A stretch of 64,000 bases of DNA from a virus (taxonomy: Duplodnaviria > Caudoviricetes), in the IMG/VR virus record IMGVR_UViG_3300008110_007313; one strand, written 5' to 3'. The first letter of the stretch is position 1. Every line of letters begins with the position of its first letter. Positions 1,087 through 57,933 of the stretch are shown here, in pieces. The position numbers were made by a program, and so were the translations under genes. A model generated the notes under the pieces. That model was given only the letters and a program-made list of their open reading frames with translations. It did no database searches and had not been told where the DNA came from.

Positions 1087-1430
1087 TTTTTCTTTGTGGC
1101 CACGTTGATGGCTGCTCCTTTGCGATTGGCGTCAGGATCTTGACGACGTTTGCGAGCCGCTGCACTTGCACGGCCTTTTTTGCCCAGGGCATGTGCCTTG
1201 GCTTGTGGTAAACACTTGGGTTTGCCTTCTGATTCTGAATCACGAGCACAGTCTCCACGGATTTTGCCGTCTGGACCAAATCGCACCCATTTTTGTTTGA
1301 ACCACTTGCGCAGATCTTCTTCAAGGTCTGCTTCGCTGATCTTTTTGCAACTGCCTGGTGAGTATTCAGCTGTGCCTGGCACACGCCGATAGCCCTTCCA
1401 ACAAGATTCCAGTATTTCTCTGTATCTCAT
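1083..1430 (-). CDS. Small basic putative internal head protein
   Basis: MRYREILE; CWKGY..GSC mini-module; DLRKWFKQKWVR..KPKCLP module; ATGA overlaps with both neighbours. Confidence 0.6.
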   Translation of the reverse strand: MRYREILESCWKGYRRVPGTAEYSPGSCKKISEADLEEDLRKWFKQKWVRFGPDGKIRGDCARDSESEGKPKCLPQAKAHALGKKGRASAAARKRRQDPDANRKGAAINVATKKK

Positions 1431-1699
1431 CGGGTTGCACTTTCAAAAATTTTTCTTTGTTCGCCGTACCAGTCTTGCCAGCCGTCTCTGCGAGCCGAAC
1501 ATTCATAGTAGGTGGCATAATTTTTCACAACCACACGTAGAAGATCAGTGATTGCAGTTTCAGTGGGCAACATCTGAGTCAACTCTGGGCAGCTTTTCAT
1601 CAGCTCCGGCGGTGCATCAGGAAATTTTTGCTTGACTGGGACTACAGTAGAGCAGGCTGACAAGATCACGACAGTCAATAACAAAGCCATGCTTTTCAT
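1427..1699 (-). CDS. o-spanin (Rz1-like lipoprotein)
   Basis: Lipobox LSAC after signal peptide, Pro-rich KFPDAPPELMKSCP, directly after i-spanin-like gene. Confidence 0.75.
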   Translation of the reverse strand: MKSMALLLTVVILSACSTVVPVKQKFPDAPPELMKSCPELTQMLPTETAITDLLRVVVKNYATYYECSARRDGWQDWYGEQRKIFESATR

Positions 1700-2208
1700 T
1701 TTTTGTCTCCCTGTGCTGCACGATTCAGAATGGCCGCTGCATTGTGAGCATCTATCACCGCAGCTGGTACAGGGCAGTTTTCAATGTATTTGATAACTTC
1801 CTCACGCTTGATTCTTTCAGGGCCTTCTACCATTACTTCTTTGGTGTTCCATTTATCAATATACTTGATAATTTCTTCGCCTTTTTCTCGCACCACTCGG
1901 GTTTTTTCTACCACACGAGTTTGCACTTCCACATTGGTCTTGGCACTGCGAGCCTCAGCTTCGGCAACCTTTAGTTCCATTTCGGCCACACGCTGTCGCC
2001 ATTCAGATTCTACTGAATAGCCACCACGTAGGTACACGCCCAGCGCCAACAGCACAATGCCAGCAATCTTGAACGGCAGTTGATACTGCCAAATTACAGG
2101 TATGCGATGCGCAAACAGGCCAGCCACGGCCAAGATCACACCCAGCACAAGTATAGAATTAACTGCCCATAAAATGGCAGTGTCGGGGAGAAAATGTAAG
2201 ATCCACAT
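1696..2208 (-). CDS. i-spanin (Rz-like)
   Basis: N-terminal TM helices, then coiled coil and C-terminal C-x-V-P motif; late TAAATA at 2214-2219. Confidence 0.7.
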   Translation of the reverse strand: MWILHFLPDTAILWAVNSILVLGVILAVAGLFAHRIPVIWQYQLPFKIAGIVLLALGVYLRGGYSVESEWRQRVAEMELKVAEAEARSAKTNVEVQTRVVEKTRVVREKGEEIIKYIDKWNTKEVMVEGPERIKREEVIKYIENCPVPAAVIDAHNAAAILNRAAQGDKK

Positions 2209-2216
2209 GCCTGTAT

Positions 2217-2795
2217 TTAGTAACCAAAATCAAGATTACGTTGCTTTAGCTTTTGCCAGGTCTGTGTGTATGTTGCAAACTCAGTGTGTTGGTACTGTTC
2301 TAAATTTTCTCGCATGAAACTAGAAAAATCATCCTGGCCAGTGTCAATGCAGAACACCTGATCTGCCCACCAATCTACCGTGGTTTGATTGTAGTATTGC
2401 CAGTGATGTTCCAGCGCCATGTTCATGGTATGATCTAACCCATGCTCTAGGATTTCTGGCCGATGCAGGTGTTGAGTCCAGACTTGCCAGCAGCGATTAT
2501 AACTAGGCGCAAAATGACTTTTGATTTTGATAATTTGTCGACCTGGAAAATGCTGAAATAGCAGTTGGGTGTCAAGGCAGTGTGTAAGCTCAATGAGATT
2601 GTGTCTTGACTTCAGTTGAGTTGACTCTTTGGGGTAGGGCCTGGTATCGGGATCCTGGTAGTTGATTTCTGGAGTTGGGTCTGGCCCTGAGTGACTGTGT
2701 GCGTGTTGGTTGTGACGCCATTGTTTTTGCAGAAGATACCTGGCCAGTCGATTGCCCCCACTGCCGGGAAAATAAGCAATTACGCAGGCATTCAT
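2217..2795 (-). CDS. Sulfotransferase-like/P-loop-like protein
   Basis: Start moved to ATG 2795 (ATGA overlap with upstream stop); N-terminal IAYFPGSGGNRL motif. Confidence 0.45.
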   Translation of the reverse strand: MNACVIAYFPGSGGNRLARYLLQKQWRHNQHAHSHSGPDPTPEINYQDPDTRPYPKESTQLKSRHNLIELTHCLDTQLLFQHFPGRQIIKIKSHFAPSYNRCWQVWTQHLHRPEILEHGLDHTMNMALEHHWQYYNQTTVDWWADQVFCIDTGQDDFSSFMRENLEQYQHTEFATYTQTWQKLKQRNLDFGY

Positions 2796-3868
2796 GAGTA
2801 GTAGTAAACAGACTGATCGCGACTGGGAAACAGATCCACAGGCGAATCTTCTCTGCGTATGTCCAGAGTCAAACAATGAAGTCCGCCATCCCAGAATGTT
2901 CTAGTACGAAATGGCAAGCTGTGCGCAGTGATTCCAAATTTTTCCAAGGCTCTAAATACAGCTTCGTTTTCTCCCAGCATGAGCACATTTTTTTCGTCAA
3001 CAACCAAGCAGTTGACTTCAAAGTAAGTTTCTGTATAATTGCCCACCCAGTCTAGTGCATGTTTGATCACATGATCATTAAATGCTTGATTATTACTAGC
3101 GCCGGCAAGCCAAAATTTACCATTGGCTCCAGGAGTATTTCTTCCATGTTGATTGTTTGAAAACTCCGGCTTTGCAATATTGATCTGTTCCCAGCCAGGA
3201 AATGTTCGATCATAGTCTGAAAAATAACGGCTGGTCAGCAGTAGCCCGGGCTTGATTGCAGCAAAACATGCGTCAACATGCCCGCCGTTGTTCAACAGAT
3301 GCAAACGACTGTCAGCAAAATACGGTTTTATTTTTTGATCAAATTCTTGTTGCAATAGATCAATTTGACTGTTTCGTTGTACGTGAAACACATCAAGATA
3401 AAGATCCTTGCCGACTCTCACAGTGTTTGCGCCGCTGAGACTGCCCAGGTGTTCGAGTCTGATTTCTGGTATCACCTGTGATCCAGCATCAGCAGCATAA
3501 CGGTCAAGTGCTGGCTGCCAAGCTTGGGCCATCCATTCAGGATAAAACAATTTGTTTCCGTGCGCTAAAAAATGATCTCTGGGGGTAATCTGCGGCTTCA
3601 GCAAGGTAGTGGGATGATGCGGATGCCCGTCGGGAGATATGAAATCATCTATTTTGTGATACTCAGGCCGCACTACATCGACTCCAAATTCCTGGAGTTT
3701 ACTCTGGATCGTGTTGAGATCTGCCTGAGTTTTTTCAGTGAGTTCATAAAACACATCTCGAACCTGAGACTCAAGGTGATCATAAAAATGGCTGGGGTAA
3801 ACATCTCCCAGCCATACTTCTTTCAGCTTGCCCCAGTTGGTAAAACTATTAACCAGTGGTGTTGACAT
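2792..3868 (-). CDS. Amidinotransferase (glycine/inosamine-phosphate amidinotransferase family)
   Basis: NSFTNWGKLKEVWLG, PRDHFL, GHVDAC, WDGGLHCLTLDIRR (catalytic Cys motif). Confidence 0.85.
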   Translation of the reverse strand: MSTPLVNSFTNWGKLKEVWLGDVYPSHFYDHLESQVRDVFYELTEKTQADLNTIQSKLQEFGVDVVRPEYHKIDDFISPDGHPHHPTTLLKPQITPRDHFLAHGNKLFYPEWMAQAWQPALDRYAADAGSQVIPEIRLEHLGSLSGANTVRVGKDLYLDVFHVQRNSQIDLLQQEFDQKIKPYFADSRLHLLNNGGHVDACFAAIKPGLLLTSRYFSDYDRTFPGWEQINIAKPEFSNNQHGRNTPGANGKFWLAGASNNQAFNDHVIKHALDWVGNYTETYFEVNCLVVDEKNVLMLGENEAVFRALEKFGITAHSLPFRTRTFWDGGLHCLTLDIRREDSPVDLFPSRDQSVYYYS

Positions 3869-4526
3869 CGGAATTCCTTTTCAATGTATTTAAGAATTCC
3901 TGTGTTTGGGCGGTTTTAATTCCAGTAACTTGCAGTGTGGCTCTAGGCACATGCCCTGCATTGGCTGTGGCATGTGGTACATTGACCCAATCAAATGTTG
4001 AAACATCGCCTGCACGCCAACCAGTCCAGGCATAGTTGCCATAACTCCAGAAATGTCCTTGCTGCCAGTCTGTGAGCTGTACAAAATAGCGTACCACTTG
4101 GCTGGGATCAGCCGGCATCCATTTTTCCAGCTTGTCTAAGTGCAAGTTCCACACTTGTCCAGGATGTTGCACATGTATGCGGGCCATGCTTTTTTCCAAG
4201 CCAAATTGATCAGCAATGCGCTGAAACACCGGCGCTAGATCATAAGTCAAGTTTGTGACCACGTAGTCGCGCCCATAGCCTTGCTGTTCTAGGTCATGGT
4301 CTTCTTGATCGTACTCTTCTGTGGCACGTTTTAATGGATCTGACTCGCGACCTCGAGTACGCCAGGTCACAGATTTTGATACAGCGACCGCAGCAGCTAG
4401 TTCCGCAGTCCAGTCTGGCTCGATGTGTCCTAGGTGTTGCACAGTGTCCCAGCGTGGATCCTGTTGTGTAGTATCAAAATGATATTGGCTGCGGGCTCGG
4501 GTTATTTCCCAATTTGATTGTGTCAT
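3849..4526 (-). CDS. Fe(II)/2-oxoglutarate oxygenase (cupin fold)
   Basis: LHLD..VPHATAN..RATLQVTG: HxD..H triad plus Arg. Confidence 0.75.
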   Translation of the reverse strand: MTQSNWEITRARSQYHFDTTQQDPRWDTVQHLGHIEPDWTAELAAAVAVSKSVTWRTRGRESDPLKRATEEYDQEDHDLEQQGYGRDYVVTNLTYDLAPVFQRIADQFGLEKSMARIHVQHPGQVWNLHLDKLEKWMPADPSQVVRYFVQLTDWQQGHFWSYGNYAWTGWRAGDVSTFDWVNVPHATANAGHVPRATLQVTGIKTAQTQEFLNTLKRNSDVNTTG

Positions 4527-5197
4527 ATTACTGTTACCTCAATATCGTTGTTGGTGTAATTTTGTCTGTAACTGCTGTCTGGCCAGGCAATGTTTAATGC
4601 ATTACATAATTCCAAATTAGTGCGCACCTGTTTTGATCCGCGGTGTTTGTAATTCCACATAGTGTCAGTGATACCTTGATTTTGTTTCTTGATACACGTG
4701 GCCATGTGCTTTAAATCTTGATAATATTCACGGTATAATGGATACGTTATATCAAAATGGCCACATTTTACCCACCAACCCAGGCAAGAATCATTGCTGC
4801 GATGAACCAACACAATGGCACAATCCATGAACTGTTCACGCAAGTGTCGGATATTTTGTTCATACGAGAAGATGTGGCTTTTGATGATTCTAACTCCTTG
4901 GGAGTCTTTGCTAAACGGGTAATCAAAGCTGGCCTCCAATTGTTGTCGGTCGAGTATGGTGAGATCCTCGGGCAAAGGACAAGCCATGCCAGGATCCCAA
5001 TATGCACCCAAATGCATAAGTTCTCGCTGACCTGATGCATCGTGGTAATACGTCCACTCGTCTCTGTAGTCTGAACGATCTATCGATGGCGAGTAATAGA
5101 TGTTTTTTACAACACTGCTCCATTTTGAGCCTGGAGCGCCGGCTACAAAGACATATTTCATTTGTTGGGAGTAATTCGTCGAGCAATAGGTTGCCAA
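4523..5197 (-). CDS. Sulfotransferase-like/P-loop-like protein
   Basis: YVFVAGAPGSKWSSV, IIKSH and IVLVHR motifs; true start probably at MKYVF (about 5161). Confidence 0.5.
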   Translation of the reverse strand: MATYCSTNYSQQMKYVFVAGAPGSKWSSVVKNIYYSPSIDRSDYRDEWTYYHDASGQRELMHLGAYWDPGMACPLPEDLTILDRQQLEASFDYPFSKDSQGVRIIKSHIFSYEQNIRHLREQFMDCAIVLVHRSNDSCLGWWVKCGHFDITYPLYREYYQDLKHMATCIKKQNQGITDTMWNYKHRGSKQVRTNLELCNALNIAWPDSSYRQNYTNNDIEVTVI

Positions 5198-6120
5198 GTT
5201 TGTTGCAGTCGAGCCATGCTTGCTCGCACTCCGGCAGCTGAATGTTCTGTAGGTGTGATATACATCATGTTTTCACGAAACTTGACAGCGGCTTCAGCTG
5301 ATTGAATAGCAGGCACAAACTGATCACGGTACCATGCTTGAATTTCAGGGGGTGTGCCTGGTGGCAATACCATGTTCCAGCAACCGTGAATGCTGAGTCC
5401 AGGCGCTGCTTTGCTCATCAAAGGAATATGCTCTAGCCCAGGCAAGGCACGTGTGTCTGCAATGCCAATGAACTTGAGACGTCCTGCTTGCACATGTGGA
5501 TAGCCCACAGCCACTGGTGTTACACCAAACTCTACGTGCCCGCCCATGACATCTAGTAGAGCCTGTGCTGGGCCTTTGTACATGGCAGTTTGAAGGTTGT
5601 CGCTACCTGCTACACTTACTTTGTCTACAAGATATTCCACTGCCAGCTTGTGTCCACCACCGCCAATGGCCACAGTCATTCGTTGTCGATTACGAATGGC
5701 TGCAACAAATTCTTCTGGTGTGTTGATCTTGCTTGACGGATGTGCCCAAAATGCCAGGGGTGATCTAGCAATGTTGGCAATGGGTTCCAGATCCATGGGG
5801 TTGTACTTGATCATGTCCTTGAACCAGATTTCGGGAGTGACCCAGTTTGATTGGCAAGCAGGCACACTTATGGTGTGACCATCACGTGGTGTTGTGACAA
5901 AATGATTGATAGCAATGTTGCCGTCAGCTCCTGGGCGATATTCAGAATTGAATTTGGCTCCAGTTTTACGTTCCACAATGTCTGCAACGATTCTAAACGA
6001 GATTTCGTTGCCAGCACCAGGACCATTGGGGAATATCACCGTAACAGGTTTAGTGGGCTGCCAAGCCAGCGCAACAGTAGGCGCCAAAACTAAGGCTGCA
6101 AGTAATTTTTTCATTGACAT
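5158..6120 (-). CDS. Bug/TctC tripartite tricarboxylate transporter substrate-binding protein
   Basis: Signal peptide then WQPTKPVTVIFPNGPG, YRPGADGNIA, YKGPAQALLDVMGGHV; SD AAGGA. Confidence 0.9.
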   Translation of the reverse strand: MSMKKLLAALVLAPTVALAWQPTKPVTVIFPNGPGAGNEISFRIVADIVERKTGAKFNSEYRPGADGNIAINHFVTTPRDGHTISVPACQSNWVTPEIWFKDMIKYNPMDLEPIANIARSPLAFWAHPSSKINTPEEFVAAIRNRQRMTVAIGGGGHKLAVEYLVDKVSVAGSDNLQTAMYKGPAQALLDVMGGHVEFGVTPVAVGYPHVQAGRLKFIGIADTRALPGLEHIPLMSKAAPGLSIHGCWNMVLPPGTPPEIQAWYRDQFVPAIQSAEAAVKFRENMMYITPTEHSAAGVRASMARLQQTWQPIARRITPNK

Positions 6121-6212
6121 AGGGTTCCTTAAATAGTATACTTGATTTACAGCAACAGAGCAAAAATTTTTATGGTCTGTTGTAAAATTCTCTTTTATTT
6201 ATAAAATTTTTT

Positions 6213-6941
6213 ATGAACACCAAAATTTTTAATCTAATCACAAAAAATTTGCAACAGGCATTTGCTTTGCCCAAGTATGCAGATATTGTGATCAACGCAG
6301 ACACTGTAGTCAACACACTGCCTTGGACCCCGGCACGCTACTCAAAGTTCAAAGACGCTGTGGAAGCAGAACTTAGCTTGCCCTGCGAGTATCGTGGCAC
6401 CCTGCGTGAAATTACAGACGACCTAAGCGAACGCTACACACATAGGTTTTTTGCTGAGATTTGGAAACCACGCACAGGCGACTATGAACACACGGGCTGG
6501 GAATTGGCTGACGAAGTTAACAAGCTGAATCCAGAGAAAGTATTAGATGTAGGCTGTGGATATCATCCTTTTAAAGGACGCATACACAATCTAATTGGTA
6601 TTGATCCCTACAACAACTGTGCTGACTATGAAGTGGACATCTTGGACTACAAGGTCAAGCCCGAAAGCTACGATGTTATTATTGCCCTGGGATCAATCAA
6701 CTTTAACTCACGAGATGAAATTGAATCACGATTCGCGCACTGTGTGACGTTGTTGAAATCCGGCGGCCGGTTCTTTTTACGAGCCAATCCAGGGATAACA
6801 CACAAGACAGGGCCTTATGTGGAAATCTTTAATTGGACTTTTGAAGTTGTAAATGAATTTGCCGAAAAGTACAATTTAAATCTAGACACATTCAAGAAAG
6901 ATGCCAATGATAGATTGTATTTTGTCTATACCAAACGATGA
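6213..6941 (+). CDS. Class I SAM-dependent methyltransferase with N-terminal carrier-protein-like domain
   Basis: VLDVGCG motif I, LIGIDP, YDVIIALGSINF, LLKSGG. Confidence 0.8.
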   Translation: MNTKIFNLITKNLQQAFALPKYADIVINADTVVNTLPWTPARYSKFKDAVEAELSLPCEYRGTLREITDDLSERYTHRFFAEIWKPRTGDYEHTGWELADEVNKLNPEKVLDVGCGYHPFKGRIHNLIGIDPYNNCADYEVDILDYKVKPESYDVIIALGSINFNSRDEIESRFAHCVTLLKSGGRFFLRANPGITHKTGPYVEIFNWTFEVVNEFAEKYNLNLDTFKKDANDRLYFVYTKR

Positions 6942-8333: not shown

Positions 8334-8789
8334 TTATTTATAAGCAGTGCGATTGATGTTCAAGCGTTGCTGAAGTCTTTGTATAGCAGTGTCGGCTTTT
8401 TGTATCAAACTGGCATAGTTGTCTTGATCGGCACCTCGCATGTACAATGCTAAGTCTGTGTCAGCTTCTAGTCCAGGGTTCATGAGTCCGCGTTTTTCGG
8501 CCGCTGTTCGCAGTTTTTCCAGCTGTTGCATTTTGTCAATGGCTGCGTTTACTCCAGACAACTTGGTTTTGAGTTCTGAATAGCTGTATTTGCTATAATC
8601 TGTAGGTGGAGTAGGTGCCGGGCGTCCAGCCTTGGCAGTCATAAATCGTTGAGCCATGTTTTTCTCAAAATCCTGTTGCCAAGCAGCTACGTCTTGATCT
8701 CGTTGTTGTGTGATAGCACCACGAGCCTGTTGCAGAGCAGCCAGGGCTTCAGGTTTGAGTGCTTCTTGTAAAAATTCACTGGCTCTCAT
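8334..8789 (-). CDS. Putative internal head protein
   Basis: MRASEFLQEA, similar to T4 capsid-targeting sequence MKTYQEFIAE. Confidence 0.55.
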   Translation of the reverse strand: MRASEFLQEALKPEALAALQQARGAITQQRDQDVAAWQQDFEKNMAQRFMTAKAGRPAPTPPTDYSKYSYSELKTKLSGVNAAIDKMQQLEKLRTAAEKRGLMNPGLEADTDLALYMRGADQDNYASLIQKADTAIQRLQQRLNINRTAYK

Positions 8790-11103: not shown

Positions 11104-11266
11104 GGTTGTATATTTACCACAACAGGACTCAAGCTGGATTTTGACATCACAGGGTCAACAGCCTAATACTTATGCTGAAAAACCAAAGAAATCTGTCCAC
11201 ATAATTCTCTGATTCACTGTACCGTAAATATCCTTGTCCAACTAACGGACACAAGGAGAAAACACT

Positions 11267-12004
11267 TTGAGTAGAAACCGCGCTGCGAAAGCACAAAACA
11301 AACGTATGGTACAGACACAAGAGAACACTATCAGCTTTAACCAAGCACCTAAAGCGGCACAGCGCCGCATAGACCTGATCCCTCGAACACGAAATCAGGA
11401 ACGCTTGGTGCTGGCTCTTTTGGACGCTGACCAACACATAGTTGTTACCACTGGTCCTGCTGGCACTGGCAAAACGTATCTAGCCATGCAAGCAGCAGTA
11501 AAAGCATTAAGAGAAGGAGATTGCGATCGCATAGTATTAACACGCCCAGCGGTTGGCGTAGAGGGAGAACAACATGGTTTCCTCCCGGGCAATTTAGTTG
11601 CTAAAATGGAACCTTGGACTCGTCCTTTGCTAGACGTCATGCGGGAATACTACCGCCCTCAGGACATTGTAGCCATGATAGAAGATCAGGTTGTGGAAAT
11701 TGCGCCTCTGGCATTCATGCGCGGCCGCACCTTTAAAAACTCGTGGATTATTGCCGACGAAATGCAAAATGCAACTCCGGCACAGGCCAAGATGTTAATG
11801 ACTCGCATTGGAACGAACTCTAAGATTGTGATCACAGGTGATGTTGAGCAAGCTGATCGTAACGCAGACGACAACGGCTTGATGGACCTGGTAACAAGAT
11901 TGCAATCTTTCCCAGTGAACGGTATCACGGTTTGCCCCATGGAAAACCGTGATGTTCAGCGACACAAGATCATAGGAGAAGTGTTACGACTCTATAGTAA
12001 ATAA
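11267..12004 (+). CDS. phoH: PhoH family protein
   Basis: GPAGTGKT, LTRP, GFLPG, PLAFMRGRTF, DEMQN, GDVEQAD; TTG start with SD AAGGAG. Confidence 0.95.
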   Translation: MSRNRAAKAQNKRMVQTQENTISFNQAPKAAQRRIDLIPRTRNQERLVLALLDADQHIVVTTGPAGTGKTYLAMQAAVKALREGDCDRIVLTRPAVGVEGEQHGFLPGNLVAKMEPWTRPLLDVMREYYRPQDIVAMIEDQVVEIAPLAFMRGRTFKNSWIIADEMQNATPAQAKMLMTRIGTNSKIVITGDVEQADRNADDNGLMDLVTRLQSFPVNGITVCPMENRDVQRHKIIGEVLRLYSK

Positions 12005-12009
12005 GGGCC

Positions 12010-12672
12010 ATGCTGGCCCAACTTGCCCACCCTAATTTAATCGTAGTTCACTACAGACCATATCAGGGTGGCAAGTTTTTCATCAACTGCCTTGCTCATC
12101 ACTACAAAGTAATGCCTCAGCTGGATACCAGCTGTTACCTGTCTGGTCAAGATTTCAAAATACAACAAATTCACAACAGTTTGCCCCCGCCTGAACACCT
12201 ACGCAAGTGGGAAAAATTCGAGTTGGGTTGCAGATCTTTTTGGGGCGGTAAGTTGACTGAATTGTTGCAACGTACACAACAACCTAACTCAGTGTCAACT
12301 GAATTGTTGAGTCAATACCGTTGTTTCATAGTCAATCACATGACCAATCCAGAACGCCTTGATCTAATTGATCTGAATCTGCCAATGGCCAGACACATTG
12401 TACTCACCAACGCTGATGAGTTTTGCAAGACGTCAATTGAGAAAAAAGCACCTCTGGACTATGATCCCAAGTTGTCAACAGGATCATTTGAAAGACACAT
12501 GTTTACAAACCGCAATGCATTTTTTCTAGATGTAGATTCTGCATATTCTAACTCAACACAATTGATTACGCAACTGCATCGGTGTTTGATCTGGCTGGGC
12601 GTGGATACTGAACTAGATCCAACAGTATCTCAGTTTATTGATCAATATCGTTGGCTTCATGGCCTACAATAG
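12010..12672 (+). CDS. Sulfotransferase-like/P-loop-like protein
   Basis: VVHYRPYQGGKFFINCL motif resembles 2217..2795; TAAATA 6 nt upstream. Confidence 0.45.
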   Translation: MLAQLAHPNLIVVHYRPYQGGKFFINCLAHHYKVMPQLDTSCYLSGQDFKIQQIHNSLPPPEHLRKWEKFELGCRSFWGGKLTELLQRTQQPNSVSTELLSQYRCFIVNHMTNPERLDLIDLNLPMARHIVLTNADEFCKTSIEKKAPLDYDPKLSTGSFERHMFTNRNAFFLDVDSAYSNSTQLITQLHRCLIWLGVDTELDPTVSQFIDQYRWLHGLQ

Positions 12673-13270
12673 TTTGATATGCTTCGCGCCAGTTTTTGAC
12701 CACTGGATAGTTGCAGCAATGGTGCATGTTGTGTCCGTGTTCCATGAGCATGCTGTTTAGACCCATGCTATAGCCCACGTCAGCGTTTTCAGGCTTGTCT
12801 TCAATCCACCAGCAACCTGAACCTGCGTATGGCTCCAGTGCTTCGTTTTTATCAGCACCTGTATCCAAGCACACAATTGATTCAAACACTGTTTCACCAA
12901 ACATCTTGCGCAGATTCATTTCTCGCAGTCGTTGTGCATTGATATCCCGGCTTAGACTTGTGATACAGTGAAACACGTAGCCATGCTCTTCGTGCAGACG
13001 CTTGACATAGTACATGGCATCACGCAAGGGTGGCAAAAACCCAATGGCCGCCGATTCATTGAACATTCTAATCAGCTTTTTGCCCTGCTCTCGAGTAATG
13101 CCATAGCGTTCACCGATGTCATAGACAAATGCAGACCCGGGCTGTTGTTCATGCCCGTGTTCTTCCATCCAGATTGCAAAGGCATACTCCCAGTTCAACA
13201 GCACGCCGTCGGCGTCAACTAGGATTGTTTGCGTTGGGTTGTACTTCAGATTCTGATTTGGTTTCTTCAT
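12635..13270 (-). CDS. HAD-superfamily 5'(3')-deoxyribonucleotidase-like phosphatase
   Basis: ILVDADGVLL (motif I), CITS (II), K (III), WIEDKPEN (IV). Confidence 0.85.
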   Translation of the reverse strand: MKKPNQNLKYNPTQTILVDADGVLLNWEYAFAIWMEEHGHEQQPGSAFVYDIGERYGITREQGKKLIRMFNESAAIGFLPPLRDAMYYVKRLHEEHGYVFHCITSLSRDINAQRLREMNLRKMFGETVFESIVCLDTGADKNEALEPYAGSGCWWIEDKPENADVGYSMGLNSMLMEHGHNMHHCCNYPVVKNWREAYQTIVGHEANDIDQ

Positions 13271-13604: not shown

Positions 13605-14225
13605 TTAACACACTAGTTTTTTGAGAACACTGTTTTTTTCAGTCCAGGTTGTAAACGTTTGATCAAACTTATCAAAATCTCTAATAGGTGTTTGTGTTAA
13701 TTGCTGTACTACATTGATCAAGTTCTGCCTGTTAAAAAAATCAGCCAATGCAATGGCTTGCATGTTGGGCACGGTTTTCCAGATATGAACCTGCTTTAAC
13801 CACAGTGTAGAAAAAAATTGTCGAGCATTGTGCTCAGTTACTCGTTGTTGAGCCCAAACGGGCAAAGTTTGTTTGTGAACCTCAACAAAATGCATTAGGC
13901 TGTTTTGATGCCGTTTGGCAATAAACACATCGATGATACCAACTGCGGCCGACTCAGGAAAGTCTATGTAATAAAATTTCTCAGCCAGTTCTACAAACCA
14001 ATCAAAATAATAGTGCGAATTCTCAACAGGATCAACTTGAGACCAATCTAAGATGCTAGGAACTACATTTTTGTAATCTACACAGATATCTCTAAAATAA
14101 CGTCGGTTGTGTAACACCAACCCAGTGTCTGTAATATTACATTCTACAGAAGTATTCAAATCGAGTTGTTGGAGGCACAGTGTTTTTAAAAAATCACCCC
14201 CAGTTCCTCCCACATAACAAATCAT
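13605..14225 (-). CDS. Sulfotransferase-like/P-loop-like protein
   Basis: Start moved to ATG 14225 (ATGA overlap); MICYVGGTGGDFL. Confidence 0.45.
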   Translation of the reverse strand: MICYVGGTGGDFLKTLCLQQLDLNTSVECNITDTGLVLHNRRYFRDICVDYKNVVPSILDWSQVDPVENSHYYFDWFVELAEKFYYIDFPESAAVGIIDVFIAKRHQNSLMHFVEVHKQTLPVWAQQRVTEHNARQFFSTLWLKQVHIWKTVPNMQAIALADFFNRQNLINVVQQLTQTPIRDFDKFDQTFTTWTEKNSVLKKLVC

Positions 14226-26527: not shown

Positions 26528-28588
26528 ATGTCATATATTATCAATAATAGTCGCGGCAACATTGTTGCTGTTGTTCCCGATGGTACCGTAAACCAAGGAG
26601 CGACCAGTCTGAGTTTGATTGGGCAAAACGTAACAAATTACGGTACTGACCAAAACGAAAATCTAGTATTCTTGCTAGAAAATTTTGCCTCGCCTTCGGC
26701 ACCAAATCAGCCCATCCTAGGGCAACTTTGGTACAAAAGCGACGAAGATTTAATTTATTCCTACAGCACAGCCAATACCTGGCAAGCCTTGGTCAACGAA
26801 GCCTATGTGCAGGCACAAAAGATCAGTCCTATTTTTACAGGAGTACCACAGGCGCCTACTGCACCTGCTGGCACAGCTAACACACAGATAGCTACTACTG
26901 CTTTTGTAACCAACAGCCCGCAGTTTGCAGGCGCCCCAACTGCTCCAACTGCGACACTTGCAACATCGAATACTCAGATTGCAACCACAGAGTTTGTAAA
27001 AAATGTGGCCAACAACCTGGGCACTATGTCCCAACAAAACTTTAACTCTGTGGCCATCACTGGAGGTACCATTACTGGACTGTCTGCGCCCTTGCCAGTG
27101 TTGTCTGGGGGTACAGGAGCTCAAGATGCTATCAACGCTAGAATCAATCTTGGACTGGGCTCTATAGCCACACAAAATGCCAACAGTGTTGCTATCACTG
27201 GCGGCTCTGCCACAGGACTCACAACACTGTCATTGTCTAATCCAACTTCAGGTGCTGTTTTCAGCACTGGCGGATCGCTGAGTGCGGTGAGCACATTGCC
27301 TATTAGTCTAGGGGGCACAGGTGCCAGTGATGCTGCCAACGCTAGAATCAACCTTGGTCTAGGTTCAGGTGCGGTAACCAACATTGGTACCATTGCAACA
27401 CAAAATGCCAACAGTGTTGCTATCACTGGCGGTACAATAACAGGTATTTCTGATTTGGCCGTGGCCGACGGAGGCACAGGTGCTAGTGATGCTGCCAATG
27501 CTAGAACCAATCTAGGAGCCGCTGCTCTGGGCAACAACAGTGATATCACTTCTATCACAGGACTGACCACTCCCTTGGCACCCTTGTACGGCGGCACAGG
27601 TGTGTCAGGACTCACGCCCAACGCTTTGGTTGTAGGCAATGCCTCATCCAGCGTAAAAAGCATACTGCCAGGAAATGCAGGTAATGTGTTGATCAGCACA
27701 GGGTCGCAGTGGATTTCTCAGGTATTCCCTGACGCTGGAGGTACCGTGACCAGCATAGAATTTATAGGTGGCAATGGTATTCAAATCACAGGTATCAATC
27801 CTGTGACCAGCGCAAGTACTATAACAATTAACAACGCAGGTATTACACGCATCCAAGGACCTAACATTGCTCTCACATCCACAGGCGTGGAATTTGTGGG
27901 CAACGGCGTGAGTCAAAGTGGCAACGTATTTACATTTAGTAGCACTGGTGCTCAAGGTCCCATTGGTCCAACAGGCCCAGCAGGTCCGCAAGGTGCAGAG
28001 GGCGCTACCGGGCCACGGGGTGCCACAGGACCACAGGGCTTGCAAGGCGAACGTGGAATTCAAGGGGCGCAAGGTCTCACCGGTGCCACAGGTCCTGCAG
28101 GTCCTAGTTATACCTTGCCCACAGCATCATCTAGCACACTAGGCGGGGTTAGAATTGACGGAACCACAATTACCATTTCTGGATCAGTTATTTCTGCCAA
28201 CATGCCAACTGCTACAGTATCGACACTGGGCGCTGTTCGTCCAGATGGTACTACAATTAAAATCAGTTCAGGGGTTATTTCAGCTCCTACTGCTACAGGA
28301 TATACTATCGTTTTTGCCACAGCTCAAAACTGTGTGGGATTTTCAAACAGCTTTGAATGGAACAATTCTACAAACTATTTTGATGTGTTTCCGCCAGCCG
28401 GGTTTAATATGACTCAATTGCAGGGATTCATGGCCAGCATGAGCAAAATATTCTTTGCAGGTAATGTCAACCTTGACGATTCAATGAGAACGGAATGGGC
28501 TGTGCAGGCAGATAGAATTCGAGTATGGGTTCAAAATACTGAACAGCGAGATACACCGGCGGTTAACTACATAGCTTTTTGGAGATAA
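26528..28588 (+). CDS. Tail fibre protein with collagen-like segment
   Basis: [33 protein letters not shown] repeats; GGTGA..AR.NLG repeats; 18 Gly-X-Y triplets. Confidence 0.85.
27171..27432 (+). repeat. 34-bp direct repeat inside tail fibre gene (27171-27204 and 27399-27432)
   Basis: Identical cacaaaatgccaacagtgttgctatcactggcgg. Confidence 0.9.
27947..28108 (+). repeat. Collagen (Gly-X-Y)18 coding repeat
   Basis: GAQ GPI GPT .. GPA GPS counted directly. Confidence 0.95.
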
Positions 28589-39132: not shown

Positions 39133-41094
39133 TCAACCAACAGGCCTTGACCAGTTGTCGCGTTTTTCCCAGCCCAGTCTAAATCCATAGTGAAAACCGT
39201 CTAGGTCCGGGTATCCGTTGGGACCACGAGCTTTGAGATCATACTCAAACTTGGCATGCCAATCTCCGCGATGATTGATTTTGAACCAGATGTCTGCGTT
39301 AAATTCATCGCCTTCGTGAAACACTCGTACAGGCCCAAATTCTGCAAGATCTTCTGCATGATCAAAACGCAGTTTGAGTTCAAACTCTCCAACTGCCAAC
39401 CACAGTATTCTCAACAATGGCCATATTTCATTGACCAAGGTGTCGGCCACGGGATTGATTGTGGTCTTAATGATCTGATAATCAAAGTCTTCTTGATACG
39501 GAATCAAAGGACGAATATTAGCCGGAGAATAAGCCAAGGTATAATGATCCTCAACGCCGGGACGTTCAATGTGTTGTCCGTATTTGATACCCTGTTCATG
39601 TCGACGCATGTGATTCATCAAGATGTTCACACTTTTGAGTCGCACCAGTCTATGCGCCGCGGTATTGGTGTGGTCCTCAGTGGTCCATAGTGCACCAAAG
39701 TGTCCGTGGCTGATTCCAAACTTCTCACGCTCTTGACTCAATGGTGTATCAGGCAACACATTACAGGTCTGCACAGCATAGCCAGCAATATTGGTTCTGC
39801 GGGTACGCCACATCAAGGTCATGGTATCTGCAAAATCTTTGGCAGTTTCGCCAGGGAAGCCCACAAACCAGTTGGTAAATGCACTGATACCAACTTTGGT
39901 TATGTCATTGAGATTTTGTTCTACTGATTCTCGTTTGACATTCTTTTTCATGATGTCCAACACTCGCTGACTGCCTGACTCCACACCAAAGTTCAACATG
40001 TTGCAGCCGCTGGCCTTGAGATCTCGAAAGTAATCTATATCCATACGATCATCGTTGCGACAGTATCCTACCCAATGCAGGTCATGCATACCGCGTTCAA
40101 CTACGCCGCGAGCAAAGGCCCGTAGTTCTTTGAGATTACCATTGACCAGGCTGTCAATGAACCAGATAGTACGAACACCAAAAGTTTTATATTGATACTC
40201 AATTTCGTCCACAATGTTGCCAGCCAGCCTGCCACGATATCGCCAGAATGTTGTTTCCGAGCAGAACTGGCACTTGGCCACACATCCGCGACTGATTTCA
40301 GAACCCACTGAAGTGCCTAGTCGATACAGTTCCAGGGGCAGATCGCTGTAGTCGGGCCATGGCATAGAATCTAGATCAATGCGCTGTTCTTTGGGATGAC
40401 GCAGTATGTGATCTGGGATGGTTTCGCCAGCTTCGACCTTTTCTAGAATGTCCAAAAAGATCAGTTCGCCTTCGCCTACCACAATGTGATCGTACAGTTC
40501 GGGACGTTTGACTTTTTCCTGTATGGCCTGTGATCCTCCGGCCAAGAACACAGCGTCGGGCAGGCGTTCACGCAGGCGTTCTACTACCCAGTTGGCACAG
40601 TTGTTGTTGGTGTAGTACAGGCTGAACCCAACTACATCAGGAGCAAATTCTACAATCTGATCAATGTACTTGAGCAACAGAGGTTCGATAACCGGGTGTA
40701 CATCTTGCCAGTATGGTTCTTCTTTGTCCCACTTCCAATCAGTGTAGGGACTCCATAGTTCCTCGCCCAGCTCACTGTAACACAACACATTGAGGTCGTA
40801 TGCACAGGCCGCAAAACCTGAGGCTTTGGCCAGGGCCGTGAGTCGTGCAATATTGTAAGGTGCAATATCCACTGACCAAAATGGAGTCATTACCATGGCC
40901 ACCCGTGTTTGACGAGTGGTTGGGTGAATAATTACCGAACTTAGATTTTTTTGCGGACGACCTCGACTCAGTTCTTCTACCACACTCAACATCTGTGTGT
41001 GTGGACAGTCTGACTGAATCGCTGGAGTACTAGACTTCAGTGCCGGTTGAATCGCAAAGACTTTTTTGTTGATAGAGTCTCTTGCTGTTGCCAT
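39133..41094 (-). CDS. Cobalamin-binding radical SAM enzyme (class B)
   Basis: PDVVGFSLY and LAGG (B12 domain), SRGCVAKCQFC, FGVESGSQRVL, VGFPGET. Confidence 0.9.
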   Translation of the reverse strand: MATARDSINKKVFAIQPALKSSTPAIQSDCPHTQMLSVVEELSRGRPQKNLSSVIIHPTTRQTRVAMVMTPFWSVDIAPYNIARLTALAKASGFAACAYDLNVLCYSELGEELWSPYTDWKWDKEEPYWQDVHPVIEPLLLKYIDQIVEFAPDVVGFSLYYTNNNCANWVVERLRERLPDAVFLAGGSQAIQEKVKRPELYDHIVVGEGELIFLDILEKVEAGETIPDHILRHPKEQRIDLDSMPWPDYSDLPLELYRLGTSVGSEISRGCVAKCQFCSETTFWRYRGRLAGNIVDEIEYQYKTFGVRTIWFIDSLVNGNLKELRAFARGVVERGMHDLHWVGYCRNDDRMDIDYFRDLKASGCNMLNFGVESGSQRVLDIMKKNVKRESVEQNLNDITKVGISAFTNWFVGFPGETAKDFADTMTLMWRTRRTNIAGYAVQTCNVLPDTPLSQEREKFGISHGHFGALWTTEDHTNTAAHRLVRLKSVNILMNHMRRHEQGIKYGQHIERPGVEDHYTLAYSPANIRPLIPYQEDFDYQIIKTTINPVADTLVNEIWPLLRILWLAVGEFELKLRFDHAEDLAEFGPVRVFHEGDEFNADIWFKINHRGDWHAKFEYDLKARGPNGYPDLDGFHYGFRLGWEKRDNWSRPVG

Positions 41095-41329
41095 GCGGAT
41101 ATTTACCGGCGTGCGTTAGCTCTTTTTTGAATTCCTTGTTGACATAGTAGTCAATCAGTCTACGTTGAATATGTTGCAACAAATCACCGTGATCGTCGGC
41201 CACAATAAATCTTACAGGGCAATGTCCCCATGTTTGTGTGCGCTGAAACTCTGCAAACCACTGACGGTGATTTCGGTCATCTGCGTTGAACGCAATCCAA
41301 GGTCTGTGATGAAAATTAAGAATGCTCAT
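41030..41329 (-). CDS. Hypothetical protein
   Basis: RPWIAF..HRQWF..WG.CPVRF; tail overlaps the radical SAM start. Confidence 0.6.
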   Translation of the reverse strand: MSILNFHHRPWIAFNADDRNHRQWFAEFQRTQTWGHCPVRFIVADDHGDLLQHIQRRLIDYYVNKEFKKELTHAGKYPHGNSKRLYQQKSLCDSTGTEV

Positions 41330-41919
41330 GCTTGCTCCTTATGAGTAGATAACCGTTTTGATTTTTTATTCTCAGAGATGCCAAACAATTTGTTAGCACG
41401 ATCCTTGAACTCTTGCTCTTTTTTAGCGTTTTCTGTTTGCTTCTTTACCTTCGCTGCTTTCTTACGCAAATTAGCTTCGCGTTTCCTGCGAGTCTCGGAC
41501 ATGGGTTTAAATTCGTAACTAAACTTTAATCCATCGGCTTGGTAGATGTTTCTCTCAACAATGTGTCGCAAATCTTCTCTACCGCACAGCAGTCGTTGGC
41601 GGCACAGGTCTACGTTGTCGATCATCAAATCTACACCATAGATAGTAGATAGTGCTTGTTCAAAGGTACTACCATTCTCCATCTTGCGTATCAACACTTC
41701 GCCTAAAAACTGACCGTCGCCACAACTGTTGTCTAGGAATGTCTTAGACGGATCTTGGAACTGTTCGATTGGAATTTGTTCCAGGATCTCACGCACAAGT
41801 TCTGTAGGAGTAAAAACCTCACCGGTGGCCTTTACTCTCAGTTGGTCACGTTCTACTCCGCCCATGTAAGCACGGTCACGGATGTGATCTATAACTTCAC
41901 TTAACGTTGGCTTCGACAT
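41326..41919 (-). CDS. Short N6-adenine MTase-like protein (SAM-binding half only)
   Basis: TGEVFTP, FLDNSCGDGQF, IYGVDL, ADGL; no NPPY. Confidence 0.75.
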   Translation of the reverse strand: MSKPTLSEVIDHIRDRAYMGGVERDQLRVKATGEVFTPTELVREILEQIPIEQFQDPSKTFLDNSCGDGQFLGEVLIRKMENGSTFEQALSTIYGVDLMIDNVDLCRQRLLCGREDLRHIVERNIYQADGLKFSYEFKPMSETRRKREANLRKKAAKVKKQTENAKKEQEFKDRANKLFGISENKKSKRLSTHKEQA

Positions 41920-44900
41920 AATCTATTTCTTCTTGTGTAAGACCAAAGTGTTGGTAAAGTTCTTGGTCCGTCCAAATTTTACTAGCAAGTTTAGGTAACG
42001 ATGATAGAACTTTTCCATTAAGGAATCCGCTCCACTTACCAGTATTAACAATAAATTTATAAAGTTTACTATCGAGATAACTCAGAATATGTTGTGCCTC
42101 TGTAGAGTCTGCTAATATGTATTGGCATACTTCTGAGGTTCCGAGATTGCCTGCACTAAAAAAAGGTTTAAAATATCCACTGGTGGTCCAAACAATTTTA
42201 GACTTTAAAAAGTCCTTTGATTGTTTTTTGCAAAACTTTGTTTGTGCATTTGTATGGAATGTTGTATATTTGTAAGTTGTATCCTGAGTGTCAGAGAAAT
42301 TATTATTCTTATGGTCACTATGGCAAGATGTATCGCAAAGTATATCTAACTTAGGGTGAGTTGAATTGATAACTTTGTTGTGTATAGGAAATGTCTTTGC
42401 AAAATTTCTTGGCAAGTACTGAAGTTTAGTGATGTCTACTTCAAGGCCGTCGATCACGGCCGTTTGTGTGTTTTTATTTTTTTGTACACACCATGCTGTA
42501 AAACTACTACCAACTGTAAAATATTTTCCTACTTCAGTATCTACCCATACAACAGAATTATCTTTAAACATCTTTAGAAGTTGACTATTTGGACTCATCC
42601 AACTGTCAGGAGTTACAAACGCAATAAATCCATTTGGATTTAACAACTCAATGCCCTTTTCTGCAAATTTGCTCCACAGATTATGGCTTTTTGGTTGTTT
42701 TGTTCCTTTATCGTTATTACCTTGATAAGGAGGGTTGCCTACTATCACATCAAATTTCATATCAAACTCCAATTCTGTAAAATCACCTTGCATTACTACA
42801 ATGCCTGGGTATTTCCGTTTAATCTGATTACAGAGAAAACTATATTTGTCATTATACACAATCTTGTCTATAATATCAATACCAAACATGTCCACTAAAA
42901 CATCTATCTCAGAACCATGTCCGCCGGCCACTACAAGAATCCTCTTGCAATGCTTACTCTTAATAAATCTTTTTAGTTCTCGGTTGCCAAAAATTTCAAA
43001 CCAAAGTTTTGCGTCATCTTTAAGAATAGCGAGTGCGTTATTCTCAATGTGCTTTTGTGTCGTATTATATTTACTCATACGCACAATCATGTCTAGTTCT
43101 GGAATGGGCAAACAGTCCTCGTCTGCTAGAGTCTTGATTGTTGTAGTGTCTACGCCGTACAGTTCAATAAATTCTTTTTGCATTTCTGCATTATTGCCGA
43201 TAATATCAAGGCATTCTAAAAAACTCTCCCCTTGATAATTGCTTAAGGCAAGGACAGTTGTAGCACTTCCGTTAATTGCTCTTTTTGCTTTGTCAAGGAT
43301 TACCGCCAATGGATTTTTTTTTGGTCGGCCATTTTTAGTTGTACCAGCATCAAAGGTCTTTCCAGTCTTGATGATTTTGTCAATTTTAGATTTTTCTGCT
43401 TTATTGCTAGTAGATCGTTTTGCAAGTTCACCCAATGCCTCTACCAAACTTGGTGCAAGATTAACCAAGTCATCTAAGGTCATTTTGCTACGCGAATTAG
43501 CAATCTCCAATAGTTTATTATTATCTTCAAACTGCTTGATAACTTCGTCGGCATCGATCCAGTTACCGGAGACTATGTCCTTGATGTTGACACTATTCAA
43601 TACTTCTCGAACTGCATCGGGATAAGTTTTACCCTTCTGACGGATCAGCAATGCCGCTTCTACTGCCACGCTCATGACAGAGTTACGAGTCTTACTTTGG
43701 TCAAAAGCAAAGTCAAAGATGTGTCCAAACTTTTTGTCGTATCCAGGTGTAAGGCAACGGCTATATTTCTGCATGTAAGGATAAACATCACCACCTTCTT
43801 GCATAAACAAGCAGGCTTGGATCTCAGGAATGCTATAACTACGAGTTCCCATCATGTTAGTAATCACTAGCAGTTTGTCGCGACCTGGGTAGTATCCGTT
43901 TTGTAGGCGGACTAATTCTTCCTTAGTGTCTCCTTCGGAATCTTTGTTATTGGTATAGTCGCCGTTAAGGATTAGAACCTTGTGTTCTGTGCAATGCTTC
44001 TCGATAATTTCTGCCAATGCCTCCATTGCTTTTTTAGAGATATTAACAAACAACATAAGATTGTTAATAATCTCACCTGCAGCCTCACTTAGGTTCATTC
44101 CGTAGATAGGCTGATACCCAAGCATATCTTGGAATGCCGCAGAAATAAACTTTTCTTGCGATCGCGACTTTTCTAAAATCTTATTGATGTTGGGCAAGAC
44201 ATCCTTGTCAAAATCTTCCAATAGTTTGTTCATCTTTGGATTAAACAACATATTATAGAATCGACGCACTACTACATTAGGAATACTTGTATCTTGCTCC
44301 ACCATGCAATAAGGAACACTAATAATTTCGTCAATAGCGTTCTTACCAAATGCCTTGGCAAGGCGACCAATATTGGTTCCGCTGGCGTTAATACGAGTAA
44401 CTGTTTTGTTTTCTAAGATGTAGTCAACTTTTTCTACTTGGCTATCTGTATGAGTGCCAAAGTCGGTTTCTTCTAATAATGCAATATGTGTGCCTGCTAG
44501 TTCGTTGATCCATTCGTATTTTTCTTCTACTTCAGGATTCAGACTGATAAACACAATGGGCATTTTACCATCAGTAATGGCTTGTTTATACTGATCTTCG
44601 GCATCTGAATCTGCCGCGTCAATAAAACACATAGATGCAAAGTCTACATATTTTGCACACTCGTCCTTATAGGATGTCTTGACACTAAGGCCTACCCCAT
44701 ATGCCATAACAAGCATCGAGCTGTGACCAAATTCTTCTTGCATTTCTTTTGCAAGGGTTAAGAACAAAATTGTTTTACCGATGCGAGCCGCAAGTTCGCA
44801 GACAAAATTAGTTGCTAGTCCATTTTGTTTTAAAACATCCAGTACTTTTTTAATAACAAGCTTCTGCACATTTCGTAGACTCACAGATTGTTTTATGTGA

Positions 44901-57684: not shown

Positions 57685-57933
57685 TCAACTTGGACGTAAT
57701 AACCAGCCTTGGCCAGAAATTCGATGATACCAGCAATAAAAAGGTTCATCGATGATCAATTTGTAGTTTTTGCATAGATGCCAATATTTTGGCAAAATTT
57801 CCATGCCATCAATAAACACTGTGTCTGTGCTGGAAAACTGCAAGACATCATGTAGCCCTGCACGACTCAAGACTCCGTTGCATTCTATATCCAAGTGGTA
57901 GTCAGTACCCAGCAGATCGAAAAAGTTGTTCAT
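57685..57933 (-). CDS. Hypothetical protein
   Basis: EPFYCWYHRISGQGWLL; downstream of the radical SAM gene. Confidence 0.55.
   Translation of the reverse strand: MNNFFDLLGTDYHLDIECNGVLSRAGLHDVLQFSSTDTVFIDGMEILPKYWHLCKNYKLIIDEPFYCWYHRISGQGWLLRPS

Follow-up and report, generated by a model that had tools for sequence, protein, structure and literature searches.

Positions 2217-6941 of the IMG/VR virus record IMGVR_UViG_3300008110_007313, which was analysed as one stretch of 64,000 nucleotides (nt; by the window we mean this whole stretch), hold an island of tailoring-enzyme genes together with the gene of a secreted binding protein. The listing of open reading frames (ORFs) gave six of them, five on the minus strand (5158-6120, 4523-5197, 3849-4526, 2792-3868, and 2217-2876) and one divergent on the plus strand (6213-6941), and since all six have many diverged homologues on other phage contigs, they are genuine genes. 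From the head of the minus-strand series onwards, their predicted products are a solute-binding protein of the TctC/Bug family (g320, 5158-6120), a sulfotransferase-fold protein (g224, 4523-5161), an Fe(II)/2-oxoglutarate (2OG) oxygenase (g225, 3849-4526), an L-arginine-type amidinotransferase (g358, 2792-3868), and a small P-loop-like or sulfotransferase-like protein (g219, 2217-2795); the plus strand encodes a class I S-adenosylmethionine (SAM) methyltransferase (g242, 6213-6941). By comparison with homologues, we corrected the start of g224 to the ATG at 5161 (MKY..., 212 amino acids, aa), because in one relative an in-frame stop codon precedes that ATG, and the start of g219 to the ATG at 2795 (192 aa). 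With these starts, ATGA overlaps were found at the TctC/g224, g224/g225, and amidinotransferase/g219 junctions, and g225 and the amidinotransferase gene overlap by 20 nt. The end of g219 lies 8 nt from the next minus-strand gene, which overlaps its own successor by ATGA. The overlaps and the short gap indicate one minus-strand unit that runs from the intergenic region 6121-6212 through a spanin-like gene pair, and TctC, g224, g225, the amidinotransferase gene, and g219 are one operon continuing into the spanin genes; no convincing minus-strand terminator was found inside it. Apart from the two starts, this is the arrangement of five overlapping genes and a divergent methyltransferase gene that the original prediction, made from the sequence alone, had described. 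Lake and freshwater metagenomes from 16 studies contain DNA of the window, nothing near-identical was found among cultured phages, and the phage is an uncultivated freshwater jumbo phage.

We clustered all ORFs of 162 loci. The results showed a conserved layout, in which a divergent methyltransferase gene, TctC, g224, and g225 are followed by a variable stretch of 0.7-6 kb, spanin genes, a GH19-like endolysin gene, and holin-like genes. The order methyltransferase/TctC/g224/g225 was kept in nearly all of the 80 loci seeded with g224, at 45-90% identity, and these four genes are the conserved core across about 80 related jumbo-phage loci. The same families meet again elsewhere in other orders. 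In L060/L062 the methyltransferase, TctA, TctC, g225, g224, and amidinotransferase genes stand in one direction; in L013 an amidinotransferase gene, two TctC genes, and a g225-like gene are joined; L081 carries a rearranged related gene set; and in L050, L065, and L078 a g225-like gene lies directly ahead of the amidinotransferase gene, behind a UDP-sugar dehydrogenase gene. In the marine virus AG-345-D19 (L168, MH319720.1), positions 4615-6804 hold two divergent genes, one for an amidinotransferase (431 aa) and one for a g224-like protein with a sulfotransferase fold (280 aa); a methyltransferase-like gene lies 2.5 kb from this pair. Neighbourhoods of amidinotransferase with oxygenase, of amidinotransferase with sulfotransferase, and of tripartite tricarboxylate transporter (TTT), oxygenase, sulfotransferase, and amidinotransferase genes thus recur in rearranged form in unrelated phages. 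Because the order is fixed in the jumbo-phage family and the same families re-associate elsewhere, the operon reads as one system, and its genes probably form a single chemical decorating system; the linked tailoring cluster proposed originally is borne out by this co-conservation.

The g224 protein matched no Pfam, NCBIfam, or PHROG family, and single-sequence and profile searches against the PDB gave nothing meaningful. Homologues in cellular organisms amounted to three matches in 185,579 species genomes, all on phage-like contigs binned into metagenome-assembled genomes (MAGs). Its AlphaFold2 model (pLDDT 91.7) was more informative. Structural alignment with VIA-align placed the protein tyrosine sulfotransferases TPST1/2 on top (Z 10.3-9.8, with 165-169 residues aligned at a root-mean-square deviation of 3.7-3.8), followed by other sulfotransferases (9.2-8.1) and kinases (at most 8.5); the top six matches were all sulfotransferases (Z 10.3-8.5), and the lead of TPST1/2 over the other sulfotransferases was only 1-2 Z units. 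Searches of AFDB clusters returned proteins named sulfotransferase at TM-scores of 0.83 and 0.79 (E-values 4e-17 and 2e-15), and the shape matches in the Atlas were Sulfotransfer_3 clusters (TM 0.59-0.62); Foldseek against the PDB reached only an E-value of 0.01. Three invariant elements, namely the loop GAPGSKWSS after strand 1, KSH96 after strand 90-94, and R121 after strand 115-120, sit where the motifs for the sulfate donor 3'-phosphoadenosine 5'-phosphosulfate (PAPS) are expected. With TPST1/2, g224 shares the beta1-loop-helix, a conserved basic residue in the loop, and an arginine after the central strand, but the identity is 12-13%, the loop GAPGSKWSS is unlike the TPST-type motif, and g224 is much smaller. 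A Walker A GK[ST] motif was not found in g224. The predicted structure indicates that g224 has a sulfotransferase fold, and we infer that it would use PAPS.

In g225, the residues H129-x-D131, H185, and R195 show no variation among 36 sequences, and 36 more distant members of the family, which comprises 1321 representative clusters, keep the corresponding H, D, H, and R without exception. The protein itself had no Pfam match, and a single-sequence search against the PDB gave nothing meaningful; its profile matched AtsK, a 2OG dioxygenase, at that protein's C-terminal motif (E-value 4e-4). The nearest named family in the Atlas is PF05118, which is carried by 17% of one neighbouring viral cluster; PF05118 also matched 3 of the 36 distant members (best E-value 2.7e-4) and was the sole Pfam family found there. 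The invariant HxD...H...R motif and this affinity agree with the original call of a 2OG oxygenase, and g225 is a predicted Fe(II)/2OG oxygenase that appears as a distant member of the Asp/Asn beta-hydroxylase (PF05118) lineage.

The first gene of the operon, g320, matched PF03401, the family of TTT receptors, above the gathering score (E-value 2.2e-22, 80.3 bits against a cut-off of 27). It begins with a Sec-type signal peptide whose hydrophobic leader ends in ALA-W and is conserved in relatives. It is predicted to be a secreted TctC/Bug-family binding protein for organic acids, in keeping with its original naming as a Bug protein. That this protein has no TctA/TctB partner had also been stated; no TctA homologue was found in the window, but four lineages of relatives (L099, L116, L060/L062, and L081) encode TctA, with TctA and a TctC-like gene in place of TctC. 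The gene at L116:8651-10096 encodes a full-length TctA permease (PF01970, E-value 4e-89). Other relatives add DctP-family binding proteins of the tripartite ATP-independent periplasmic (TRAP) type (for example L127:10552-11535; PF03480, E-value 2e-50) and second TctC copies followed by an unknown 396-aa gene, c24. Phages can supply the periplasmic or membrane part of a host uptake system, as is the case for PstS of cyanophages. A review lists tctA among the auxiliary genes of marine phages (PMC6359870). The present locus differs from these in that translation of the binding-protein gene is coupled to that of tailoring enzymes, and in that the gene is conserved throughout a jumbo-phage family, sometimes together with TctA and DctP.

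For g242, Pfam matches to Methyltransf_25/23/12/11 had E-values of 4e-4 to 5e-3 and all fell below the gathering scores. Its feature neighbours in the Atlas were viral Methyltransf_11 clusters, and a VLDVGCG motif was seen by inspection. These results suggest that g242, first proposed simply to be a methyltransferase, is a class I SAM enzyme from a phage-specific branch. No gene of the island is more conserved; g242 is present in 81 loci, with 65-91% identity in relatives.

With g358 as a single sequence, no Pfam or NCBIfam family was found at an E-value of 0.01 or below, and PDB matches to AGAT, SxtG, HsvA, and StrB1 had E-values of about 1e-7. A profile of the 31-member family strengthened these to 1.8e-28 (AGAT), 1.2e-26 (SxtG), 1e-23 (HsvA), and 6.7e-22 (StrB1), and no deiminase or DDAH was matched when this profile was compared with solved structures. 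R97, H197, D199, and C332 do not vary among the 31 sequences, and D98, the aspartate of the PRD motif, is present in at least 90% of them. C332 and H197/D199 align with Cys407 and His303/Asp305 of AGAT, and the cysteine lies within a C-terminal GG[FL]HC motif. The class named originally is upheld by these matches and the intact catalytic residues; g358 is an amidinotransferase of the AGAT/SxtG/StrB1 type from a divergent phage branch, with arginine-dependent transfer predicted from its sequence. We found 462 relatives of g358 and 207 of g224 in IMG/VR, many of them on contigs of 300-350 kb. Only 13 of 83 amidinotransferase loci carry TTT genes, and because the other 70 lack them, the amidinotransferase is an accessory gene and not part of the island core. 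Outside the TTT loci it adjoins c13/c14/DUF6614 genes or DnaB and radical SAM genes; it is mobile and has joined the island repeatedly. The virus record set of AG-345-D19 holds three amidinotransferase copies. In other phages, amidinotransferase genes often neighbour radical SAM/SPASM genes, and the window has a radical SAM protein at 57902-59176 (minus strand), the second of two.

The partner of the amidinotransferase gene is g219, which was found in relatives only directly behind it and directly before the spanin genes, and the two are an accessory cassette present in a minority of related loci. The g219 family is small, with only 12 clusters among 5.8 billion proteins, and P10, G11, G13, G14, R16, H72, and R101 are invariant in it. 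Single-sequence and profile searches against the PDB gave nothing meaningful, and comparison with AFDB gave no significant match. The AlphaFold2 model (pLDDT 90) has a broad P-loop-like fold as in g224. In VIA-align the best Z was 7.4, to kinase domains, while sulfotransferases scored 5.6-5.9 over 160-167 residues, in longer alignments; sulfotransferase clusters of the Atlas were matched at TM 0.54-0.61. No Walker A GK[ST] motif was found. Of the two sulfotransferase-like proteins announced in the original prediction, g224 holds up by its predicted fold; the model of g219 is weakly sulfotransferase-like and not cleanly separable from P-loop kinases. We rejected g219 as a paralogue of g224, as there is no similarity at the profile level. 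A paralogue family defined by [YF]xxGxGG, formed by g219 with the ORFs at 12010-12672 (plus strand) and 13605-14225 (minus strand), was likewise unsupported (hhalign probability below 2%), and only an N-terminal Y-x-x-G-x-G-G-like loop of 15-18 residues aligned. The window encodes a 653-aa B12-binding radical SAM protein at 39133-41094 (minus strand; PF04055, E-value 1e-19; PF02310, E-value 9e-8), and a g219 domain within it was also discarded, as no similarity was found.

In relatives, the variable stretch between g225 and the spanin genes holds c12, c8, an SGNH-like protein, c21, a glutamine amidotransferase/peptidase C26, extra TctC copies, and DctP. The c12 family (35 ORFs) is a third sulfotransferase-like family, and no family match was found for c21, which is widespread with 1565 relatives. 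The c8 protein (265 aa; L096:9903-10703) is encoded by 43 island ORFs in relatives and is absent from the window. Its N-terminal part is a P-loop domain like that of adenosine 5'-phosphosulfate (APS) kinase (PF01583, E-value 1e-10, above the cut-off), and its C-terminal part is an NMNAT/PPAT-like nucleotidyltransferase. Because adenylyltransferase plus 3'-kinase logic underlies the synthesis of both PAPS and coenzyme A, c8 may, by analogy, be a compact donor synthase that makes PAPS. Sulfation is a theme of the island family, in which g224, c12, g219, and c8 accumulate together. Two phage contigs of this family, L163 and L164, are found in the MAG 'Haliscomenobacter sp. EUL_031' with differing versions of the island, one full (c12, c19, c8, and c21) and one minimal (methyltransferase, TctC, and g224, then spanin). 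The MAG itself has no TctA, and host inference from it was set aside.

Downstream of g219 lies a gene for an i-spanin-like membrane protein (1696-2208, minus strand; phrog_4952, E-value 6e-9), which is kept downstream of the island in relatives, and next to it a candidate LysC/Rz1-like o-spanin gene (1427-1699, minus strand; PF23793 LysC, E-value 8e-5, below the cut-off), a call that recurs on relatives of the locus. The upstream flank consists of virion/cargo genes (DUF6321 and phrog_12928), and the flanks agree with the position between spanin and head genes that was stated originally. The flanks in relatives carry secreted nucleases, PhoH, and a metallophosphoesterase. In the window, a PhoH-like ATPase (11267-12004, plus strand) is 86% identical to the PhoH of relatives, an NT5C-like 5'-nucleotidase (12635-13270, minus strand) has an E-value of 7e-5, just below the cut-off, and the nuclease and metallophosphoesterase genes of relatives lie on the same side of the island as these two. 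Farther off, a 1149-aa protein (41897-45346, minus strand) has a C-terminal DNA-methyltransferase-like domain (phrog_3689, E-value 1e-34), and its gene lies in the window's lowest-GC stretch (0.37-0.40 at 42-46 kb).

The divergent intergenic region 6121-6212 probably holds the promoters of the methyltransferase and TctC units. A sigma-70-like TTGACA-17-TATACT lies at 6114-6142 (plus strand), a TAAATA at 6130 (plus strand) stands ahead of the methyltransferase gene, TATAAATA at 6196-6203 (minus strand) stands ahead of the TctC operon, and a Shine-Dalgarno-like AAGGA lies 5 nt ahead of the TctC ATG. All six genes had been described as lying behind TAAATA boxes. This did not hold, since promoter-like placement was found only for the TctC operon (6196) and the methyltransferase gene (6130). 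Counts in the window were not above chance (TAAATA, 27 observed against 29.6 expected; TATAAATA, 2 against 1.6), and we dropped both as an enriched promoter motif. Minus-strand TAAATA copies were seen 5-7 nt before start codons at 2214-2219, 8335-8340, 11111-11116, and 41100-41105; the copy at 2214 opens with the stop codon of g219, and these copies look like intercistronic junctions (TAA-ATA-N5-ATG) rather than promoters. Of the proposed late expression, the co-orientation with the lysis genes is what is left, and no RNA run was found to contain the stretch.

From the gene anatomy, the enzyme classes, and the co-conservation described above, we tentatively read the island as a hydroxylate-then-sulfate module with an optional amidino step, a reading that we hold with somewhat less than even confidence and that does not commit itself to a target. 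The order of reactions and the use of PAPS are inferred, as is any target. The g225 oxygenase would install a hydroxyl group on the target, and g224 would O-sulfate that hydroxyl using PAPS of the host; many relatives carry their own c8 protein with APS-kinase and nucleotidyltransferase parts. The g242 methyltransferase may add a methyl group. In this phage, g358 would contribute arginine-dependent amidino transfer and g219 a second sulfotransferase-like step. We lean towards a macromolecular target made late in infection, either a protein (of a virion fibre, or collagen-like) or a glycan of the surface. The role of TctC would in that case be to provide or sense an acidic solute and not to define the substrate.

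A published analysis of bacterial operons gives this module its closest parallel. It predicted that collagen-like or phage tail-collar proteins encoded in the same operons are first hydroxylated and then sulfated by a set of enzymes comprising a beta-hydroxylase, sulfotransferases, a fusion of PhyH and methyltransferase, and a PAPS synthetase (Iyer, Abhiman, de Souza, Aravind 2010, PMC2938197). Both systems link a 2OG oxygenase of the Asp/Asn beta-hydroxylase type, P-loop sulfotransferases, and a methyltransferase; the PAPS synthetase has its counterpart in the PAPS-making candidate of this phage's relatives, and the hydroxylate-then-sulfate logic and a connection to phage-type fibres are common to the two. 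The island differs in that it is phage-borne, is headed by a secreted TctC, and carries an amidinotransferase cassette, and no collagen or tail-collar gene is adjacent to it. The nearest collagen-repeat fibre is about 20 kb off, where the gene at 26528-28588 (plus strand) encodes a 686-aa tail-fibre-like protein with a collagen triple-helix repeat (PF01391, E-value 5e-9, residues 474-526); if the island modifies proteins, this fibre is a candidate substrate. The likeness is one of enzyme classes, set beside the published description, and the bacterial system is itself unproven. A second comparison concerns virions. Purified virions of the Synechococcus phage S-SCSM2R contained a homologue of the amidinotransferase and a 2OG oxygenase encoded near it (PMC12801897). 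ORF266-270 of this phage resemble the present locus in that an amidinotransferase (27% identity to g358) is directly followed by 2OG oxygenases and unknown genes; the remaining genes are not detectably homologous to those of the window, TctC and g224 are absent, and the setting is one of KdsA/KdsB, Kdo/glycan synthesis, and glycosyltransferases. The collagen fibre, the virion and lysis setting, and the S-SCSM2R virion proteins weakly favour a macromolecular target. The alternative named in the original prediction, decoration of the virion, glycans, or the host surface, gains support from the bacterial analogue.

Several points weigh against this module and its leaning. The g225 gene is absent from L007 and L164, so that hydroxylation is not obligatory for g224. 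The loops of g224 differ letter for letter from the canonical PAPS-binding motifs, and no Pfam sulfotransferase model matches g224 or g219. To our knowledge, the amidinotransferases so far described take small amines as acceptors and not proteins. The secreted TctC, together with the TctA and DctP of relatives, points to small-molecule uptake, and a macromolecular target leaves these genes unexplained. Collagen-like tail fibres are common in phages, which makes the fibre in the window weak evidence, and the bacterial analogue is a prediction only.

The points on uptake and acceptors lead to a different explanation, in which TctC and the TctAB of the host import an acidic, amine-bearing metabolite and the enzymes turn it into a guanidino, hydroxylated, sulfated, and possibly methylated metabolite, signal, or toxin. 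We regard this as possible but doubtful. The binding-protein gene heads the operon and is translationally coupled to it, the relatives that add TctA, extra TctC, DctP, and a class I glutamine amidotransferase/peptidase C26 fit such a pathway, and every relative of g358 with a solved structure has a small amine as its substrate. The enzyme classes also match those of CyrA/CyrI/CyrJ/CyrN in cylindrospermopsin and SxtG/SxtN/SxtO in saxitoxin biosynthesis, which are tailoring enzymes. The shared classes are the amidinotransferase, for which the profile match of g358 to SxtG was given above, the Fe/2OG hydroxylase, the sulfotransferase, and, in relatives of the phage, the APS kinase. On the other hand, the phage has no scaffold genes of this kind. 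As already stated in the original prediction, no polyketide synthase (PKS) or nonribosomal peptide synthetase (NRPS) was found among the window ORFs scanned; neither was an ATP-grasp enzyme, and related loci also lacked a PKS/NRPS or equivalent scaffold gene. The amidinotransferase is accessory, g225 appears to belong to the PF05118 lineage of protein and lipid beta-hydroxylases, g224 is in structure most like the protein tyrosine sulfotransferases, and g224 and g219 have no detectable sequence kinship to known natural-product sulfotransferases. Moreover, the operon is embedded among virion and lysis genes, and a lytic phage would have no evident gain from such a product. The parallel to CyrA/CyrI/CyrJ drawn originally thus stands at the level of enzyme classes only; the theme of the island is sulfation with beta-hydroxylation, and guanidino chemistry is not its heart, given that the amidinotransferase and g219 occur in a minority of relatives.

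It is less probable still that the genes are independent auxiliary genes side by side, with TctC boosting organic-acid uptake, the enzymes acting on separate targets, and the tight packing reflecting genome compaction in an accessory hotspot near the lysis cassette. The region between g225 and the spanin genes, which is 0.7-6 kb long and in which many cassettes are reshuffled, would suit such a hotspot, as would the amidinotransferase, which is mostly found elsewhere beside DnaB, radical SAM, or c13/c14 genes, and the nucleases, PhoH, and metallophosphoesterase that flank the island in relatives. However, about 80 loci share the order of TctC, g224, and g225 at a sequence divergence of 40-90%, distant lineages bring these families together again in other orders, and the sulfation genes g224, c12, g219, and c8 pile up together.

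Sulfur scavenging is very unlikely. It would have TctC import an organosulfate or sulfonate, from which an AtsK/TauD-like g225 frees sulfate or sulfite for conversion to PAPS (by c8 in relatives and by the host here) and use by the sulfotransferases. The only significant match of the g225 profile among solved structures is indeed the 2OG-dependent alkylsulfatase AtsK, c8 pairs nucleotidyltransferase-like and APS-kinase-like domains, and the phage lives in lake water. However, the AtsK match spans only 46 C-terminal residues, and the spacing from HxD to the distal histidine is 54 residues in g225 against about 150 in the TauD family. The Pfam affinity of g225 is to PF05118 and not to TauD, and the window lacks c8. 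Finally, DNA hypermodification is highly improbable. It would have the methyltransferase mark a base that is hydroxylated by a TET/JBP-like oxygenase, activated by P-loop kinase-like proteins, and given a further group by the amidinotransferase. Although amidinotransferase genes in other phages often lie among replication genes (DnaB, Pol III alpha, and radical SAM) and the folds of g224 and g219 also resemble P-loop kinases, neither protein has a Walker A motif, g224 has matches to proteins named sulfotransferase (TM 0.83), g225 gives no TET/JBP match, g242 lacks DNA-methyltransferase motifs by inspection and groups with Methyltransf_11 proteins, and TctC is secreted.

Each of these component classes is already known in phages, and the combination of enzymes has been predicted in bacteria. 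Phage sulfotransferases, amidinotransferases, and 2OG oxygenases have repeatedly been annotated, with roles described as unknown (PMC10580990, PMC12801897). What is new is that a phage carries such enzymes linked to a TTT binding protein by translational coupling, that several sulfotransferase-like families and a donor-synthase-like gene accumulate in relatives, and that an amidinotransferase and g219 form a cassette. In its boldest form, the hydroxylate-then-sulfate module would mean that freshwater jumbo phages encode a sulfation system of their own, with up to three sulfotransferase families, a compact adenylyltransferase plus 3'-kinase donor synthase, a beta-hydroxylase, and sometimes an amidinotransferase, which post-translationally hydroxylates, sulfates, and guanidinylates collagen-like virion fibres or surface glycans and so alters adsorption or host range. 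We consider this specific form unlikely; if true, it would be the first sulfation-based modification of the virion or host surface described for a bacteriophage. Should the system act on the virion or the cell surface, sulfation and possibly amidination would join the known phage-directed modifications, and the 2010 prediction of hydroxylase-sulfotransferase operons could also be tested in this system. Should it act on a small molecule, this would be a rare example of a tailored metabolite that a lytic phage makes from an imported precursor. In the island, translational coupling ties these enzyme classes into a single operon, which is conserved in a large and widespread family of lake jumbo phages, and the island thereby offers a testable system for the roles of these genes.

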